From IMG/VR virus record IMGVR_UViG_2778261225_000004: 20,622 nt of DNA. The stretch is one strand, 5' to 3'. Positions 8,648-14,189 of the stretch are shown here, piece after piece. Made by a program: the position numbers and the translations under genes. This DNA is from a virus. Taxonomy: Duplodnaviria; Heunggongvirae; Uroviricota; Caudoviricetes. The stretch's first letter is position 1; each line of letters begins with the position of its first letter. The notes beneath the pieces were generated by a model that saw only the letters and a list, made by a program, of their open reading frames with translations, searched no databases and was not told the origin of the DNA.

Positions 8648-10399
8648 ATGATTCAGGACGCTTTTGTGCGCCAGCGTGCGCGGCAACTTTACTGGCAGGG
8701 TTATCCGCCCGCAGAAATATCACGTCTGATGGGAATAAACCCGAACACGATTTATGCGTGGAAAAAACGCGACCAGTGGGATGAAACGCCACCCGTGCAG
8801 CGTGTCACGCAGTCCATCGATGCGCGCCTCATCCAGCTCACTGAAAAACAGAATAAAACAGGTGGTGACTTCAAGGAAATAGACCTGCTGACCCGGCAGC
8901 TTAAAAAACTGCATGATGGCCAGCCGGATGCGACGGCCACAGGAAAGAAAGGCCGGGCGAAAAAACTCAAAAATCATTTCACGCCGGAACAGATTGCCGC
9001 ACTGCGGGAAAAAATCATCAGCAGGCTGGAGTGGCATCAGCGGGGCTGGTTTGACTCCCTGACCCTTTGCAGGGAAGCCGGGATACGTAACAGGATGATC
9101 CTGAAATCCCGACAGATTGGGGCGACCTGGTATTTTGCACAGGAAGCACTGCTGATGGCGCTGCGTGACGATGTGGCGCAACCTTACCAGCGTAACCAGA
9201 TTTTTTTGTCTGCGTCGCGTCGTCAGGCGTTCCAGTTTAAAAGCATTATTCAGAAGGCCGCGGCTGAAGTTGATGTGGAGCTGAAAGGGGGCGATAAAAT
9301 CATCCTCTCCAACGGCGCAGAGCTGCATTTTCTCGGCACTTCTGCTGCGTCGGCACAGTCCTATACGGGCAATTTTTATTTTGATGAATTTTTCTGGGTC
9401 AGTCGCTTTGCCGAACTGCGCAAGGTGGCTGGCGCTATGGCAACCCTCAGCGGACTGCGGCGCACCTACTTCTCCACGCCATCCACCGAAACGCACGAGG
9501 CATACGCCTACTGGAACGGCGACCGCTGGAACGAGAAAAAGGCCACGCATAAACGCCAGCGTTTTTCTGTGGACTGGAAAACGCTGCATAACGGGCTTAT
9601 CTGCCCTGACCGGACGTGGCGGCAAATTGTCACGCTGGAAGATGTGGTTAAACACGGCTGGAAACACACCGATATCGACGAAATTCGTGATGAAAACACC
9701 GAAGACGAGTTCCTCAATCTCTATATGTGTGAGTTTGTCCGCGAAGGGGAATCGGCATTTAACCTGAATATCCTGATTGGCTGCGGTGTTGACGGATACG
9801 ACGACTGGAAAGACTGGAAACCTTTTGCTCCCCGCCCGATGGGGAATCGTCCGGTATGGATTGGGTATGACGCAAACGGCAGCAGTGGCAACGGCGACAG
9901 CGGCGCTGTGTCCGTGGTGGTTCCTCCGGCTGTTCCTGGTGGCCGTTTTCGAACGGTGGAGACGCGACGCGTTCAGGGGCTGGAGTTTGAAGAACAGGCC
10001 AGAGTCATTGAAGAGTTCACGTGTCGCTACAACGTGGAACACATCGGCATTGATGTGACGGGCGGGAACGGGGAGGCTGTTTATCAGATAGTGAAGCGGT
10101 TTTTCCCTGCTGCTATTCCGTACACCTTCACGCTGTCATCCAAACGGTCGCTGGTACTGAAAATGCTGCAAATAATGCGTGCCGGACGGTGGGAATACGA
10201 TCGCGCCGAACGCGAGCTGGTCGCGGCCTTTAACGCCGTGCGTAAGGTGAAAACACCGGGCGGCTTTATCACTTACGAAACGGACCGCGCGAGGGGGATC
10301 AGCCACGGCGACCTTGCGTGGGCAACCATGCTTGCTGTCATTAACGAACCAATTGGCGGCGAAGGAGAAAACGAGCGTTTCACGGTTATGGAGTTCTGA
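8648..10399 (+). CDS. P: Terminase large (ATPase) subunit gpP
   Basis: 583-aa ORF with LYWQGY, KSRQIGATWYFAQEAL, NQIFLSAS, ELKGG, YFDEFFWV and GYDANG motifs collinear with remembered P2 gpP; GGGGGAG Shine-Dalgarno; stop overlaps the Q start (ATGA). Confidence 0.95.
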   Translation: MIQDAFVRQRARQLYWQGYPPAEISRLMGINPNTIYAWKKRDQWDETPPVQRVTQSIDARLIQLTEKQNKTGGDFKEIDLLTRQLKKLHDGQPDATATGKKGRAKKLKNHFTPEQIAALREKIISRLEWHQRGWFDSLTLCREAGIRNRMILKSRQIGATWYFAQEALLMALRDDVAQPYQRNQIFLSASRRQAFQFKSIIQKAAAEVDVELKGGDKIILSNGAELHFLGTSAASAQSYTGNFYFDEFFWVSRFAELRKVAGAMATLSGLRRTYFSTPSTETHEAYAYWNGDRWNEKKATHKRQRFSVDWKTLHNGLICPDRTWRQIVTLEDVVKHGWKHTDIDEIRDENTEDEFLNLYMCEFVREGESAFNLNILIGCGVDGYDDWKDWKPFAPRPMGNRPVWIGYDANGSSGNGDSGAVSVVVPPAVPGGRFRTVETRRVQGLEFEEQARVIEEFTCRYNVEHIGIDVTGGNGEAVYQIVKRFFPAAIPYTFTLSSKRSLVLKMLQIMRAGRWEYDRAERELVAAFNAVRKVKTPGGFITYETDRARGISHGDLAWATMLAVINEPIGGEGENERFTVMEF

Positions 10400-11445
10400 T
10401 GAGCAGAAAAAATAAAAAAGTGCGCATGAGTTCACGCATTGATCTCGCTGATGCGCTCAGGAAAGAATCATCGCTCAGTGCATTCACATTTGATGGTCCT
10501 TATCGCCTGACCGGGCATGACCTGCTGGACAATATGTACTGTGCTGATAACGGGCGATGGTATGAAACCCCGGTGGACTGGTACGGTCTGGCAAGAGCCG
10601 CCCGGCAAACGTCCTGGCATCAGTCTGCGCTTTACTTTAAGCGCAATGTATTGCTCGGTTGCTACATCCCGCACCCGCTGCTTTCCCGGCAGGATTTCTC
10701 GGCGCTGGCGCTGGACTGGTTTGTGTTCGGTAACGCATTCCTTGAGCTTCGGAGCAATATGCTCGGCGAACCACTTAAATTACGGCACGCACTGGCGAAA
10801 TACATGCGACGCGGAAGCGATCTTGAATCATGGTGGTATGTGCAGGATGGCAAGGACGCGTTTCAGTTTCGCCCTGGCAAAGTGTGCCACCTGATGAATC
10901 CGGACATTAACCAGGAAATTTACGGCATGCCGGAATATCTTGGCGCATTACTCTCGGCCAGCCTGTCTCATTCGGCGGACATGTTCAGAAAACTGTATTA
11001 CGACAATGGATCCCACGCCGGGTGCATCATCTACATCGGTGCAGCGCAGGTAAACCGCGAAAGCATGGACTCCCTGAAAGAAACGTTACAGGGTGCGCGT
11101 GGTGGTGGTGCGTTTAAAAACGTGCTCATCCATGCGCCCAACGGTGGCAAAGAGGGGGTGCAAATTTTGCCGTTCCAGCAGATCACCGCAAAGGATGAGT
11201 TCATGAATGTTAAGGCGGCATCCCGTGATGATGTGCTGGCTGCGCACCGCGTTCCGCCGCAACTGATGGGGGCGATGCCGGGCGAAAAAAGTGCGTTTGG
11301 TGATGTGGAGAAGGCCGCGCGGGTTTACGCAATTAACGAGCTGATGCCCGTCATGGAGGCCATGAAGCACATCAATGACTGGCTTGGCGAAGAGGTGATC
11401 CGCTTTAACCCTTACGCACTGTTAGACACCCAGCCCACATCCTGA
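10399..11445 (+). CDS. Q: Portal protein gpQ
   Basis: 348-aa ORF adjacent to P in the P2 arrangement, with a GGAG Shine-Dalgarno 5 nt before the ATG; size and position match P2 gpQ (344 aa). Confidence 0.93.
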   Translation: MSRKNKKVRMSSRIDLADALRKESSLSAFTFDGPYRLTGHDLLDNMYCADNGRWYETPVDWYGLARAARQTSWHQSALYFKRNVLLGCYIPHPLLSRQDFSALALDWFVFGNAFLELRSNMLGEPLKLRHALAKYMRRGSDLESWWYVQDGKDAFQFRPGKVCHLMNPDINQEIYGMPEYLGALLSASLSHSADMFRKLYYDNGSHAGCIIYIGAAQVNRESMDSLKETLQGARGGGAFKNVLIHAPNGGKEGVQILPFQQITAKDEFMNVKAASRDDVLAAHRVPPQLMGAMPGEKSAFGDVEKAARVYAINELMPVMEAMKHINDWLGEEVIRFNPYALLDTQPTS

Positions 11446-11471
11446 CGCGCTTCGCTTGTCTGCTGCTTCGC

Positions 11472-11496
11472 CGGGGCATAAAAAATTTATGCCCCG
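11472..11496. repeat. Perfect 11-bp inverted repeat (CGGGGCATAAA / TTTATGCCCCG, 3-nt spacer) just downstream of Q; candidate cos-associated or terminator hairpin
   Basis: Read directly from the sequence 27 nt after the Q stop. P2-like cos sites lie next to Q, but the remembered P2/186 19-nt cohesive-end sequence was not found verbatim. Confidence 0.4.
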
Positions 11497-11869
11497 ACTC
11501 TCCAGCTCCTGTATCAGTCAGATAATTTCACGACGCTTTCCTGCTTATTGCCATCATCGACAGTCAGACTCTTACGCAATCCCACCGCGTTGACTGCATG
11601 TTCTCGCCGTCTCAGTGCGATTTTGACGGCCTTACCTTTCACCCCATCAAATCAAAAGCCCTCACGTCTTTTTCACGCTCAGCGTGAGAAATACAGCCAT
11701 TCTGTTGTGTCGCTGCGACATCGTTCAGGGGATGCTATTTACCCCCTGAAACGCGGGCTGTTCCCCCGTCACCTGCGCGCAGAAAAAGCGCGTTTTTTTG
11801 TGCGCGCACGGATCCTTGACGGATCCAGCCGCCACGCGGGCCGGAAGGGTAAAAAGTTGTTCAAAAAAA

Positions 11870-11899
11870 TTGTGCAAATTTGTGCACTATTGTGCAGTA
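11870..11899. repeat. Three direct 10-bp iterons in helical phase (TTGTGCAAAT, TTGTGCACTA, TTGTGCAGTA)
   Basis: Exact 10-bp periodicity of TTGTGCA read from the sequence; preceded by palindromes CTGCGCGCAG and GTGCGCGCAC around 11773..11810 and a GGATCC-N5-GGATCC direct repeat at about 11811..11826. Confidence 0.4.
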
Positions 11900-12136
11900 T
11901 CATTACAGGATGTATATCGCTTCAAATGTGCTATATTTGGTCACATTAAGGCAGCGAAGAAGATGAACTTATCCTTATCGGTGTGACTACACGATATAGC
12001 CTCATCATTGTATGTGTATGGTAGGCGTGATAGCTTACCCCAACAGATTTGGGGGAGGTGGTTGACAACTGTAAAACCATCTCCATGTTAAAAGTAAATT
12101 AGTGATGTTTAAATGATTGAAAAAAGGAGACTAACT

Positions 12137-12181
12137 ATGACCGTACGCCGCACCTATAGCGAAGAAAACTGGGACGTTTAA
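12137..12181 (+). CDS. Leader micro-ORF (14 aa, MTVRRTYSEENWDV) with a strong Shine-Dalgarno
   Basis: AAAAAGGAG sits 8 nt before the ATG. The ORF is followed by CTCCTGTTTTTTT, which can pair with the Shine-Dalgarno region, then by a terminator hairpin. Not on the track because it is below the length cut-off. Confidence 0.25.
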   Translation: MTVRRTYSEENWDV

Positions 12182-12211
12182 CTCCTGTTTTTTTAGAGTA
12201 GTTTCAGTAGA

Positions 12212-12236
12212 ATGGGGGCTTTGGCTCCCATTTTTT
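12212..12236 (+). terminator. Intrinsic terminator-like hairpin (ATGGGGGC-TTTG-GCTCCCAT plus T5) 14 nt upstream of the 198-aa gene start
   Basis: 8-bp stem (one G-U pair), 4-nt loop and a T-run, read from the sequence; its position between a leader ORF and the downstream gene suggests an attenuator. Confidence 0.45.
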
Positions 12237-12249
12237 ATGGTTAAATACA

Positions 12250-12846
12250 ATGGATTTAGTTCTTTCTGCCCTTAGTTACATAGGGAAAATTTTTTCCAGT
12301 ATTTGGGAATCCAGCCCTACGTTTTATCCAGGTGCTGCGGGTGCGCTTATTGCAGTGATTAGCATACGAAATCAGAGAAAGACATCGCGCGAAAAAAACT
12401 CATTGGATTTTGAGGCTGCATATAAACGTAACAAGGACATAGTTGATGCGTGGTCAGAAGTGTTACGCATTCATAAGGATCGCCATAATTTTCCGATCGC
12501 TGATTGGGGAAAAGAAGAATATTCTCAAACAGATGGAGCAAAAGCATTAAAACTCATTTTTAATGAGTGGGAGCGTTGTGCTAATGCCGTGAATAACGGT
12601 TTGTATGATGAGCGGTATCTATATCGTGTTTATGGTTCTACCTTAATCTTTCTTGATGTCCATTTTGAACCTTATATGGAGGAGTGCCGCAAGCGTAATC
12701 CTAGGTTTTACCGTAACTTAAAATGTCTTGCTCTCCGATGGCGTGTTAGGCGAGCGTATGAAGATCAGGAAAACGATAGTAGGGAATACAAAAAACTGCT
12801 CAATGAGGCTAAGCGATTGGTAGACAAATTGCATACCAAATTCTGA
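12250..12846 (+). CDS. Hypothetical protein, 198 aa, single N-terminal transmembrane anchor plus a charged soluble domain; cargo gene at the P2 tin/old-equivalent position
   Basis: Clean ORF in an AT-rich island (visibly lower GC than the flanking phage genes). The N-terminus (FYPGAAGALIAVISI) is hydrophobic; the rest is Lys/Arg/Glu/Tyr-rich. It has its own terminator and is convergent to parR. No family was recognised from memory. Confidence 0.75.
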   Translation: MDLVLSALSYIGKIFSSIWESSPTFYPGAAGALIAVISIRNQRKTSREKNSLDFEAAYKRNKDIVDAWSEVLRIHKDRHNFPIADWGKEEYSQTDGAKALKLIFNEWERCANAVNNGLYDERYLYRVYGSTLIFLDVHFEPYMEECRKRNPRFYRNLKCLALRWRVRRAYEDQENDSREYKKLLNEAKRLVDKLHTKF

Positions 12847-12884
12847 TTTTGCATGCTTTGTGCTTCATGGCTTCTTGAATGGGA

Positions 12885-12918
12885 CATCAGGGCGAGTTCG
12901 CCCTGATGTTGTGTTATT
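12885..12918 (+). terminator. Intrinsic terminator (10-bp perfect stem CATCAGGGCG/CGCCCTGATG, loop AGTT, then TTGTGTTATT)
   Basis: Read from the sequence 39 nt after the stop of the 198-aa gene; the U-tract overlaps the stop of convergent parR. Confidence 0.6.
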
Positions 12919-13225
12919 CAGGAAATAACGCCCGGATATTTCCTGCCATCTGACTGGTTATCTGTGCGGTTGGTACTGGCTGTGACATGGGGCGTTCGGT
13001 CCTGGTTTGCGTCACTGATAACGCCTCATCGTCAGCCCATGCAGCCAGTCGGTAAGCCTCTGCCGGATTCATTTTCAGAAGTGCCAGCCCGGCCAGAAAA
13101 GCCACGCGTTGGCCGCTTTTGCGGGCTTCTGGTGTAAGGCTGTCCAGCCAGGCGCATGCATCGCCTTCGTTCTTGACGGCGGCGGGCTTCAGATAGAAAC
13201 TTATCCGTCTGGTTGGTGTCGTCAT
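12914..13225 (-). CDS. parR: ParR-like centromere-binding protein (type II partition adaptor)
   Basis: Internal ATG of track ORF 12914..13360, 5 nt downstream of the parM stop. The N-terminus RRISFYLKP..AWLDSLTPEARKSGQRVAFLAGLALL and the C-terminal IRALFPE resemble remembered plasmid R1 ParR (RTIAFKLNP..LTAGLALY..LRSLFPKE). Confidence 0.7.
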   Translation of the reverse strand: MTTPTRRISFYLKPAAVKNEGDACAWLDSLTPEARKSGQRVAFLAGLALLKMNPAEAYRLAAWADDEALSVTQTRTERPMSQPVPTAQITSQMAGNIRALFPE

Positions 13226-13229
13226 TGGT

Positions 13230-14189
13230 TTACTCCTTGTCCATTGCGTACAGCCCATTAACCAGAGCAAACTGTGGCACCCCGTCCGTGATGAAAGTCG
13301 CATTAACTCCGCAGGCTTCGCGGATAGCGGGTGCCACAATCTCCGCCCCGCCACCGACAACCATCACCCGCCCGTAACCCGAAAAAACCGCCAGCGCGCG
13401 GATCACGCGTTGTTTCAGTGTTTCTTCCTTTTCACGAATAACCGCCATCAGGCTGGCGTAATGCGCGTCATTGTGGATGTGCTGGCGCAGCCAGGCTTCA
13501 TCATGGCGATGTTCGATAATGGTATTGGCGATGTGGTGACTGGTACGCATACCGTTAGTGGCCATCACCGACAGTACGGCATCGGCCATCAGGGAAACGC
13601 CTACGTGTGGATCGCAAAACATCTGGCTGATACCTGCCAGTTGCCCCTGAACCTTTGCCACATCCAGCGTGGTTCCGCCCAAATCCACAATCAGCAGGGA
13701 TTCAAACGGACTCATGTCAGCCAGTGCCTTAAAGCCAGCCGGAATGGATTCAGGCATAACCCGTACGTTACGGATAGTGAATGCTTCGCCGTTCTGGTAC
13801 TCCACCGGGCGCATGACGTTCGCTTTTTTGCGGTTGATGTTGGCCATGTCCGGCTGTGCGTTTGTGTCGAAATATTCGCTCAGTGGCAGGGTGACAACCA
13901 CATCCACTTCCTGTGGTGTGATGCCTGATTTGACCAGCGCGTGGTGAATGGCGATTACATTCACATCGCTGTACTGGTATTGCGTGTCGGTCGTCTGGAC
14001 AAAGCGATCGCTGACCGGATCAAAACCATAGCGCACGCCATCAAGCATGTAGTTCGCGGGCTGCGTGCCACCGAACGGCGCAGACCATTCCGACTTGAAG
14101 CTGTTCGGGCTGATGGCGTTGCGGCGTTCGCCGTTCTCAGTCCATGCCAGCTTGATGTTGGTGGAGCCGTCGTCGATACAAATTTTCAT
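13230..14189 (-). CDS. parM: ParM/StbA-like actin-like segregation ATPase
   Basis: 319-aa ORF with actin-fold motifs collinear with remembered R1 ParM: CIDDGSTNIKLAW, YSDVNVIAIHHAL, VMPESIPAG, LLIVDLGGTTLDV, GVSL, VMVVGGGAE and a C-terminal LVNGLY. Confidence 0.85.
   Translation of the reverse strand: MKICIDDGSTNIKLAWTENGERRNAISPNSFKSEWSAPFGGTQPANYMLDGVRYGFDPVSDRFVQTTDTQYQYSDVNVIAIHHALVKSGITPQEVDVVVTLPLSEYFDTNAQPDMANINRKKANVMRPVEYQNGEAFTIRNVRVMPESIPAGFKALADMSPFESLLIVDLGGTTLDVAKVQGQLAGISQMFCDPHVGVSLMADAVLSVMATNGMRTSHHIANTIIEHRHDEAWLRQHIHNDAHYASLMAVIREKEETLKQRVIRALAVFSGYGRVMVVGGGAEIVAPAIREACGVNATFITDGVPQFALVNGLYAMDKE

Follow-up and report, generated by a model that had tools for sequence, protein, structure and literature searches.

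What decides whether a prophage cargo gene with a very weak ribosome-binding site of its own is expressed? The question is raised by the window analysed here, the whole 20,622-nt stretch of IMG/VR virus record IMGVR_UViG_2778261225_000004, which we identified as a P2-like Escherichia coli prophage. It carries a gene for a 198-residue protein of the DUF4760 family, and directly upstream of that gene lie a 14-codon open reading frame (micro-ORF) with a strong Shine-Dalgarno (SD) sequence and an intrinsic terminator (Table 1). An earlier note on this DNA had proposed that such a leader gates the downstream gene, a core idea to which conservation lends strong support. Comparison of DUF4760 loci confirmed that the micro-ORF and the terminator are conserved; the antiterminator that regulated read-through would need is not conserved outside some clades. 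Most likely, the micro-ORF and the terminator together form a previously undescribed ribosome-sensing switch that keeps the gene for this membrane protein off by default. The more specific reading, in which a ribosome-dependent transcription attenuator with a translated leader peptide controls the DUF4760 gene, has in our judgement about an even chance of being correct.

DUF4760 loci were gathered from protein searches, from viral, metagenome and genome collections and by motif scans, and the comparison covers those with readable upstream DNA. They belong to Enterobacterales and marine Gammaproteobacteria, and their proteins range from 100% down to 26% identity to that of the window. A micro-ORF of 10–18 codons with a strong SD and the motif Glu-Glu-x-Trp (E-E-x-W) is present in 37/37 distinct upstream regions of the first set and in all eight further divergent loci (L074/L077, L086–L092). 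About 41 distinct loci were examined, each with the micro-ORF, the terminator and then the DUF4760 start. Some 35 distinct leader peptides were obtained, among them MLKRHIFNEENWDV, MKNRFNEENWDV, MKKIYREEDWGVFISK, MKTFREEDWGLS, MNKFVIVFNEENWGF, MKQFKKILNEELWD, MLISKHNPEEEKWT, MNVYREEDWGF and MYREEDWGYGSKA. For comparison, an ATG-initiated micro-ORF with E-[ED]-x-W occurs in 3.4% of random 390-nt windows from the same loci, which is an overestimate, as the true leaders were not excluded from these windows. The scan of the genome collection contributed only three loci, and the phage GenBank collection gave no DNA match. In every RefSeq record inspected, the micro-ORF is without annotation.

The settings of these loci differ widely. 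In P2-like prophages the cassette occupies the cargo spot, and in lambdoid prophages (L011, L013) it lies between the gene for the Q antiterminator and those for lysis. Elsewhere it is found on islands beside integrase, Abi_2 or HTH genes or, in marine bacteria, in ordinary chromosomal neighbourhoods. The leader therefore travels with the gene and not with its surroundings. The same module as in the window occupies the same place in 15 complete E. coli genomes, always in the chromosome. Among the E. coli copies, the 250 nt upstream of the gene are ~99% identical and the whole match falls to ~91% identity; only two changes affect the micro-ORF, R5C and T6I, both in its variable N-terminal part.

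Codon usage within the micro-ORF bears on whether a peptide is made. Across 34 distinct leaders, the Trp codon is TGG in all; the first Glu codon is GAA in 31 and GAG in 3, the second GAA in 14 and GAG in 20. Residue x is Asn (AAC, 15), Asp (GAT, 10; GAC, 4), Leu (CTT, 4) or Lys (AAA, 1). Codon positions 1 and 2 of both Glu codons and of the Trp codon never change and third positions vary synonymously, as do the Asp, Gly, Val and Phe codons that follow the motif. Glu codons are never swapped for Lys, Arg or Gly codons, though these are equally purine-rich, and indels inside the micro-ORF are multiples of three and remain in frame. The N-terminal part is variable, with 3–11 residues before EE, and the distance from Trp to the stop codon ranges from 1 to 7 codons. 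This codon pattern, together with the in-frame indels, points to a translated peptide under selection and thereby suggests that the micro-ORF is indeed translated. The signal can be called more than chance because it comes from cross-locus comparison; single-sequence folding cannot show it, and folding of 12090–12270 alone was not significant (z −1.04).

The terminator is equally general. A G+C-rich hairpin followed by a T-run occurs in all loci, beginning 16–35 nt after the micro-ORF stop, and the DUF4760 ATG follows ~2–45 nt after the hairpin in 35/37 regions, where the start was located by script, with none assigned in two of the 37 regions and a doubtful one in another. Stem sequences differ by clade (GGGAGC/GCTCCC, GGGGGCT/AGCCCCC, GGTGGGC/GCCCACC, GGAGACC/GGTCTCC, AGAAGAGC/GCTCTTCT and AAGAGGC/GCCTCTT); they covary between clades, with standard pairs kept at every position. 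In the alignment of the NWDV clade (A3), the terminator is 100% paired, and two pairs are changed on both sides. The hairpin and its closeness to the gene had already been recognised in the earlier note; the run of five Ts given there is in fact six, and the distance from the T-run to the ATG is 13 nt, not 14. At the level of sequence comparison, conservation establishes the micro-ORF, the E-E-x-W motif, the terminator and their order.

The two start sites contrast in SD strength. The mean SD–anti-SD energy across the family is −7.0 kcal/mol for the micro-ORFs versus −1.4 kcal/mol for the DUF4760 starts; in the window, the values are −8.7 and −2.2 kcal/mol. The previously noted 14-codon ORF with its near-consensus SD is borne out after one-base corrections, as is the absence of an obvious SD before the 198-residue gene. 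Near-absence of an SD at DUF4760 starts is a feature of the enterobacterial clades, the marine clades being excepted, and is consistent with default-off expression.

Table 1 Features of the leader region and the DUF4760 gene in the window.
Feature	Position	Strand	Details
Candidate promoter, extended −10 box TGCTATATT	11929–11937	+	Predicted; transcription start would fall near 11944
Promoter-like block	12008–12036	+	TTGTAT 12008–12013, 17-nt spacer to TAGCTT hexamer; extended −10 TGATAGCTT 12028–12036
Predicted hairpin P0	12054–12084	+	GGAGGTGGTT 12054–12063 pairs with AACCATCTCC 12075–12084
Shine-Dalgarno AAGGAG of micro-ORF	12124–12129	+	7 nt before ATG 12137
Leader micro-ORF, 14 codons, MTVRRTYSEENWDV	12137–12181	+	Stop TAA 12179–12181
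E-E-x-W motif of micro-ORF	12161–12172	+	Trp codon 12170–12172
Predicted helix P1	12162–12194	+	EENW(D) codons 12162–12174 pair with post-stop CU tract 12183–12194; −8.4 kcal/mol
CU tract CTCCTGTTTTTTT	12182–12194	+	Directly after TAA
Candidate antiterminator 2:3	12182–12218	+	CUCCUGUUUU 12182–12191 pairs with AGAAUGGGGG 12209–12218 (terminator 5′ arm); −9.0 kcal/mol
Intrinsic terminator	12209–12236	+	11-bp stem 12209–12219/12224–12234, loop TTTG, T6 12231–12236; −15.5 kcal/mol; consensus scan
DUF4760 gene, 198-aa protein	12250–12846	+	ATG 12250, 13 nt after T-run; Pfam PF15956, E 1.2e-24; PHROG 2284 (unknown function)

To what extent could the leader RNA adopt alternative folds? RNAalifold analysis of eight NWDV-clade leaders returned two helices, the terminator and P1, the latter leaving the stop codon in its loop. 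P1 is 88.8% paired in this clade versus 49–68% in slid controls. For most clades, folding predicts a hairpin that begins with the Trp codon, its partner sequence varying, and the two Gs of UGG pair downstream in 28/34 leaders versus 19.3 expected (mean z −1.1). These data lend moderate support to P1, which overlaps the conserved codons. The candidate antiterminator 2:3 is 81% paired in the NWDV clade versus 49–65% in slid controls. When a ribosome footprint was imposed with UGG in the A site, 2:3 was the fold predicted for the RNA as it stands prior to synthesis of the terminator 3′ arm; a footprint on the stop codon covered the CU tract, and 2:3 was then not predicted. P1, 2:3 and the terminator (−8.4, −9.0 and −15.5 kcal/mol) are arranged in the window's clade like the helices of the trp attenuator. 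The mutually exclusive terminator and antiterminator for which the earlier note had suggested a folding check can thus be drawn in the window's clade, but the antiterminator is not conserved in all clades.

From this arrangement we infer translation of the micro-ORF, a pause, alternative pairing and regulated read-through, in the following order. An upstream promoter, for which the two extended −10 boxes of Table 1 are the best candidates, would make the leader RNA, whose strong SD would recruit ribosomes to translate the 14-codon ORF. By default, the ribosome would reach the stop codon and cover the CU tract, or P1 would re-form after its release; the terminator would then fold, and most transcripts would stop 13 nt short of the DUF4760 ATG. 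Were the ribosome held on E-E-x-W, ideally with UGG in the A site, the CU tract would be free to pair with the terminator 5′ arm before the 3′ arm exists, so that RNA polymerase would read through. Read-through would also leave the U-rich region before the SD-less AUG single-stranded. The hold would be a nascent-peptide pause or arrest, of the class to which TnaC and the Erm/Msr leaders belong, and we favour this over simple codon starvation because it is at the amino-acid level that the motif is conserved, and hardly any position of the DUF4760 protein is kept as strictly. That the motif is invariant even where the protein has diverged to 26% identity is in keeping with a constant target, for instance the ribosome.

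Several observations weigh against such a mechanism. No pair of 2:3 is changed on both sides within the NWDV clade; across all clades, 2:3 scores no better than composition-matched shuffles (mean z −0.06), and it is absent from the marine leaders of the Colwellia/Pseudoalteromonas type. In the full RNA at equilibrium the terminator always wins, and therefore any switch must be kinetic. The want of a general antiterminator is the weak point of the proposal. A stop codon 16–35 nt before the terminator is also the pattern of any independent small gene. Finally, the residue after Trp is Asp or Gly, whose codons have nothing in common but the G in first position; an RNA-level constraint (UGGG in P1) may accordingly be superimposed on the peptide-level one.

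In architecture, the window's leader is closest to E. coli trpL, and its logic recalls TnaC and short leaders that sense antibiotics and control intrinsic terminators. A leader ORF with its own strong SD and an intrinsic terminator before the structural gene are features of trp/his/phe-type attenuators that are also seen here. The defining feature of that type, a run of codons for the amino acid of the regulated operon, is absent, and the downstream gene encodes the DUF4760 membrane protein instead of a biosynthetic enzyme. Like TnaC, the DUF4760 leaders are short peptides whose Trp is invariant at the amino-acid level and has an acidic residue close to it; the Trp of TnaC acts from inside the ribosome, stopping translation and allowing downstream transcription. 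Unlike the DUF4760 leaders, where the Trp-to-stop distance is variable and the terminator intrinsic, TnaC stalls at a stop codon 12 residues from Trp, senses free tryptophan and blocks Rho. An amino-acid-level motif after a variable N-terminal part is characteristic of arrest leaders (TnaC, SecM, Erm/Msr) and is found here, and the variable length of that part is reminiscent of known short arrest leaders. The attenuators of resistance genes offer a further parallel. The leaders of mef/msrD (MsrDL), bmrB-bmrCD and yxjB/tylosin (PMC10314930, PMC4191407, PMC6851288, PMC4335068) have, like the DUF4760 loci, a very short ORF with an intrinsic terminator between it and the gene; in them, read-through follows when a ribosome stalls and the RNA refolds, as is proposed here. 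Those systems are Gram-positive, respond to ribosome-targeting antibiotics and use other motifs, whereas the DUF4760 leaders belong to Gammaproteobacteria and precede a prophage or island gene of unknown function.

The main rival reading of the same conserved parts needs no switch, although we consider it rather unlikely. The locus would be a two-gene cassette with a constitutive, leaky terminator, and the EExW micropeptide would be a trans-acting product: a partner, inhibitor or antitoxin-like neutraliser of the DUF4760 protein, or else a decoy. The peptide, with its strong SD and its position before the terminator, would be made in large excess, and DUF4760 only from the few read-through transcripts and an SD-less start; if the short-lived peptide were lost, for example when transcription is shut off during infection, the DUF4760 protein would be unleashed. 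Amino-acid-level conservation of the peptide, the SD contrast, a terminator that is strong in all loci beside an antiterminator that is not generally conserved, and a stop-to-hairpin spacing typical of an ordinary small gene are all in line with this explanation. So is the location of the cassette in prophage cargo or defence spots and, in L087, beside an Abi_2 gene. The order promoter, small antidote, terminator and effector is that of type III toxin-antitoxin loci, ToxIN among them. The likeness to ToxIN would extend to a single promoter, overproduction of a small upstream element, restriction of read-through to the effector by an internal terminator, and residence on mobile elements. The upstream element of ToxIN, however, consists of tandem RNA repeats, and that of the DUF4760 loci of a micro-ORF that is almost certainly translated; DUF4760 and ToxN are unrelated proteins. 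A search of 11400–12900 for tandem or direct repeats, as in a ToxI-like RNA antitoxin, found none of note. Also against a partner role, the motif is invariant while its presumed partner diverges to 26% identity, with most of the conserved blocks changed. Peptides of 10–18 residues with variable ends would be unusual as stable binders, P1 overlaps exactly the conserved codons, and no toxicity or defence role of DUF4760 is known.

The DUF4760 protein has an N-terminal membrane helix and an all-alpha domain (AF2 model, pLDDT 89). PADLOC and NCBIfam, in both of which the 198-residue protein has no match, and Foldseek against the PDB and BFVD yielded nothing useful on function, and in the literature searched DUF4760 appears in one paper, only as a gene name, with PF15956 not mentioned. 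The earlier description of the gene as encoding a toxic effector thus finds no backing in the PADLOC, NCBIfam, structure and literature searches. Gene callers sometimes start DUF4760 at an ATG within the hairpin or T-run, as with 'MGASGSHFLWLK...' in P0003 and a 202-aa form in RM8082 (L011 3001–3036; L002 3338). Such starts are an annotation artefact that hides the terminator.

A third explanation, which we hold to be improbable, is a sensor of the trpL type, in which the ribosome waits at the single UGG when charged tRNA-Trp is scarce, read-through follows and the peptide sequence is irrelevant. The E. coli trpL leader has 14 codons with Trp near the C-terminus, as in the window. In both, a helix covers the end of the ORF and the stop codon (1:2), and a U-run terminator (3:4) stands immediately upstream of the first structural gene; between them lies an antiterminator (2:3), a candidate one in the window, with ribosome position deciding the fold in trpL and predicted to do so here. 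All three helices are placed as in trp, and UGG in the A site is the stall position that best frees the CU tract. Against this reading, there is one Trp codon here, compared with two in tandem in trpL, and it is preceded by an invariant Glu-Glu-x; E-E and the neighbouring residues are conserved as amino acids. Further unlike trpL, the gene has no link to Trp metabolism or biosynthesis, the antiterminator is found only in some clades and the downstream gene lacks an SD.

That the ORF arose by chance and the hairpin is an insulator or the terminator of an upstream unit, with no functional link to DUF4760, would agree with the non-significant single-sequence folding and the missing RefSeq annotation, but this reading is effectively refuted by the comparative data, as ORF, motif, terminator and order are kept in all ~41 loci in unrelated neighbourhoods against a random expectation of at most 3.4% per locus, and the leader travels with the gene and not with its flanks.

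We class the DUF4760 leader as an addition to the leader-peptide attenuators, without a record in Rfam, PADLOC or the literature searched. An Rfam 15 search of 11400–13000 with E values up to 10 returned only noise, the best hit being L20_leader with 21.4 bits against a threshold of 58.7 (E 0.26). If the attenuator reading is correct, the leader would found a new leader-peptide family tightly, and apparently always, linked to DUF4760, a protein family that occurs in Enterobacterales and marine Gammaproteobacteria, both in prophages of the P2-like and lambdoid kinds and on islands. The motif, the hairpin and the CU tract are individually open to mutation and offer a handle on what turns an uncharacterised prophage cargo gene on. 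Short arrest peptides are also of use for probing the ribosome tunnel and as compact inducible switches.

Upstream of the micro-ORF lie ~200 nt of conserved non-coding sequence (11929–12136). A TGCTATnnT box occurs 156–208 nt upstream of the micro-ORF in nearly all enterobacterial clades, and the TTGTAT/TGATAGCTT block is conserved 87–119 nt upstream in the NWDV and related clades; this block could equally belong to a long leader RNA. Hairpin P0 is predicted at the same place in six clades with differing stem sequences; in alignment A3 it is weak (59% paired), and this stretch is poorly aligned. The −35-like TTGACA reported in the earlier note at about 12062 is present (12062–12067), and a −10-like CATGTT, which reads TATGTT in relatives, lies at the right distance, making a promoter there possible. 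The hexamer, however, straddles the 5′ arm and loop at the top of P0, and more widely conserved boxes lie upstream. A strict sigma-70 scan of 11400–13300 called no promoter. Depending on the start, the leader RNA may be 95 to ~300 nt long, and could be much longer than assumed in the earlier note.

The SD region has a predicted long-range partner. The earlier note had paired it with the tract after the stop codon; the complementarity exists, but that tract pairs best with the EENW codons (P1) or with the terminator 5′ arm. Instead, the SD-proximal GAGACUA (12127–12133) is predicted to pair with UAGUUUC (12199–12205). Only L013 shares the complete helix with the window, two double changes separating them; other clades have it broken.

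Three further candidates were considered and set aside. An internal promoter at TAGAAT (12208–12213) in the terminator 5′ arm has no −35 or TG element, and the hexamer is not conserved in other clades. Translational bypassing as in T4 gene 60, from the GUU before the stop codon to GUU 12240, would land in a frame that runs into a stop and is not that of DUF4760. Direct steric blocking of the hairpin by a ribosome at the stop or Trp codon is made implausible by a spacing of 16–56 nt, which is too long.

In the window, the large terminase (8648–10399) and portal (10399–11445) genes are followed by the non-coding stretch, the 198-residue gene, StbB and ParM (−) and the gpA replication gene (−). 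The DUF4760 gene occupies the cargo spot between cos and the replication genes. The plasmid-type partition pair, ParM (E 1.8e-82) and an StbB-like stability protein (12914–14189, −), adjoins gpA in what is a chromosomally integrated prophage. A stretch of ~640 bp between the portal gene and the leader is absent from the window (11409–11434; compare L001 1895–2533) and present in SCU-101, RM8082, EcPF40 and A36, where it contains a minus-strand gene annotated as hypothetical (174 aa). The short form of the window recurs in TW10828 and GPEC548.

The lambdoid prophages L011 (1940–3636) and L013 (1822–3600) carry the whole cassette between the Q gene and the holin and lysis genes, which in Stx phages is the site of the Shiga toxin genes. 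L013 has a separate terminator (~2528–2556) ahead of the cassette. During late lytic growth, polymerase modified by Q would be expected to pass the leader terminator of these lambdoid copies.

The motif was encountered once away from DUF4760, in L082 (2268–2331, −), where a 12-codon ORF, MTIRGNEENWGF, whose SD is AAGGAG, overlaps the tail of an SSB-like gene that ends EGEDDDNPW. The 266-aa gene behind this ORF is not DUF4760, and a clear terminator was not found. We regard it as probably a chance match and not a true leader, about 0.2 such matches being expected by our own estimate from pattern degeneracy and collection size.

Insertion sequences have reached the module in some E. coli isolates. 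Three pig isolates, EC556, EC571 and EC581 (L007 3429–4126), have IS1 within the DUF4760 coding sequence, and the chicken isolate GPEC548 (L006 4015–4938) has IS5 directly after DUF4760. The leader is intact in both IS-bearing loci inspected, L007 (EC556) and L006 (GPEC548).
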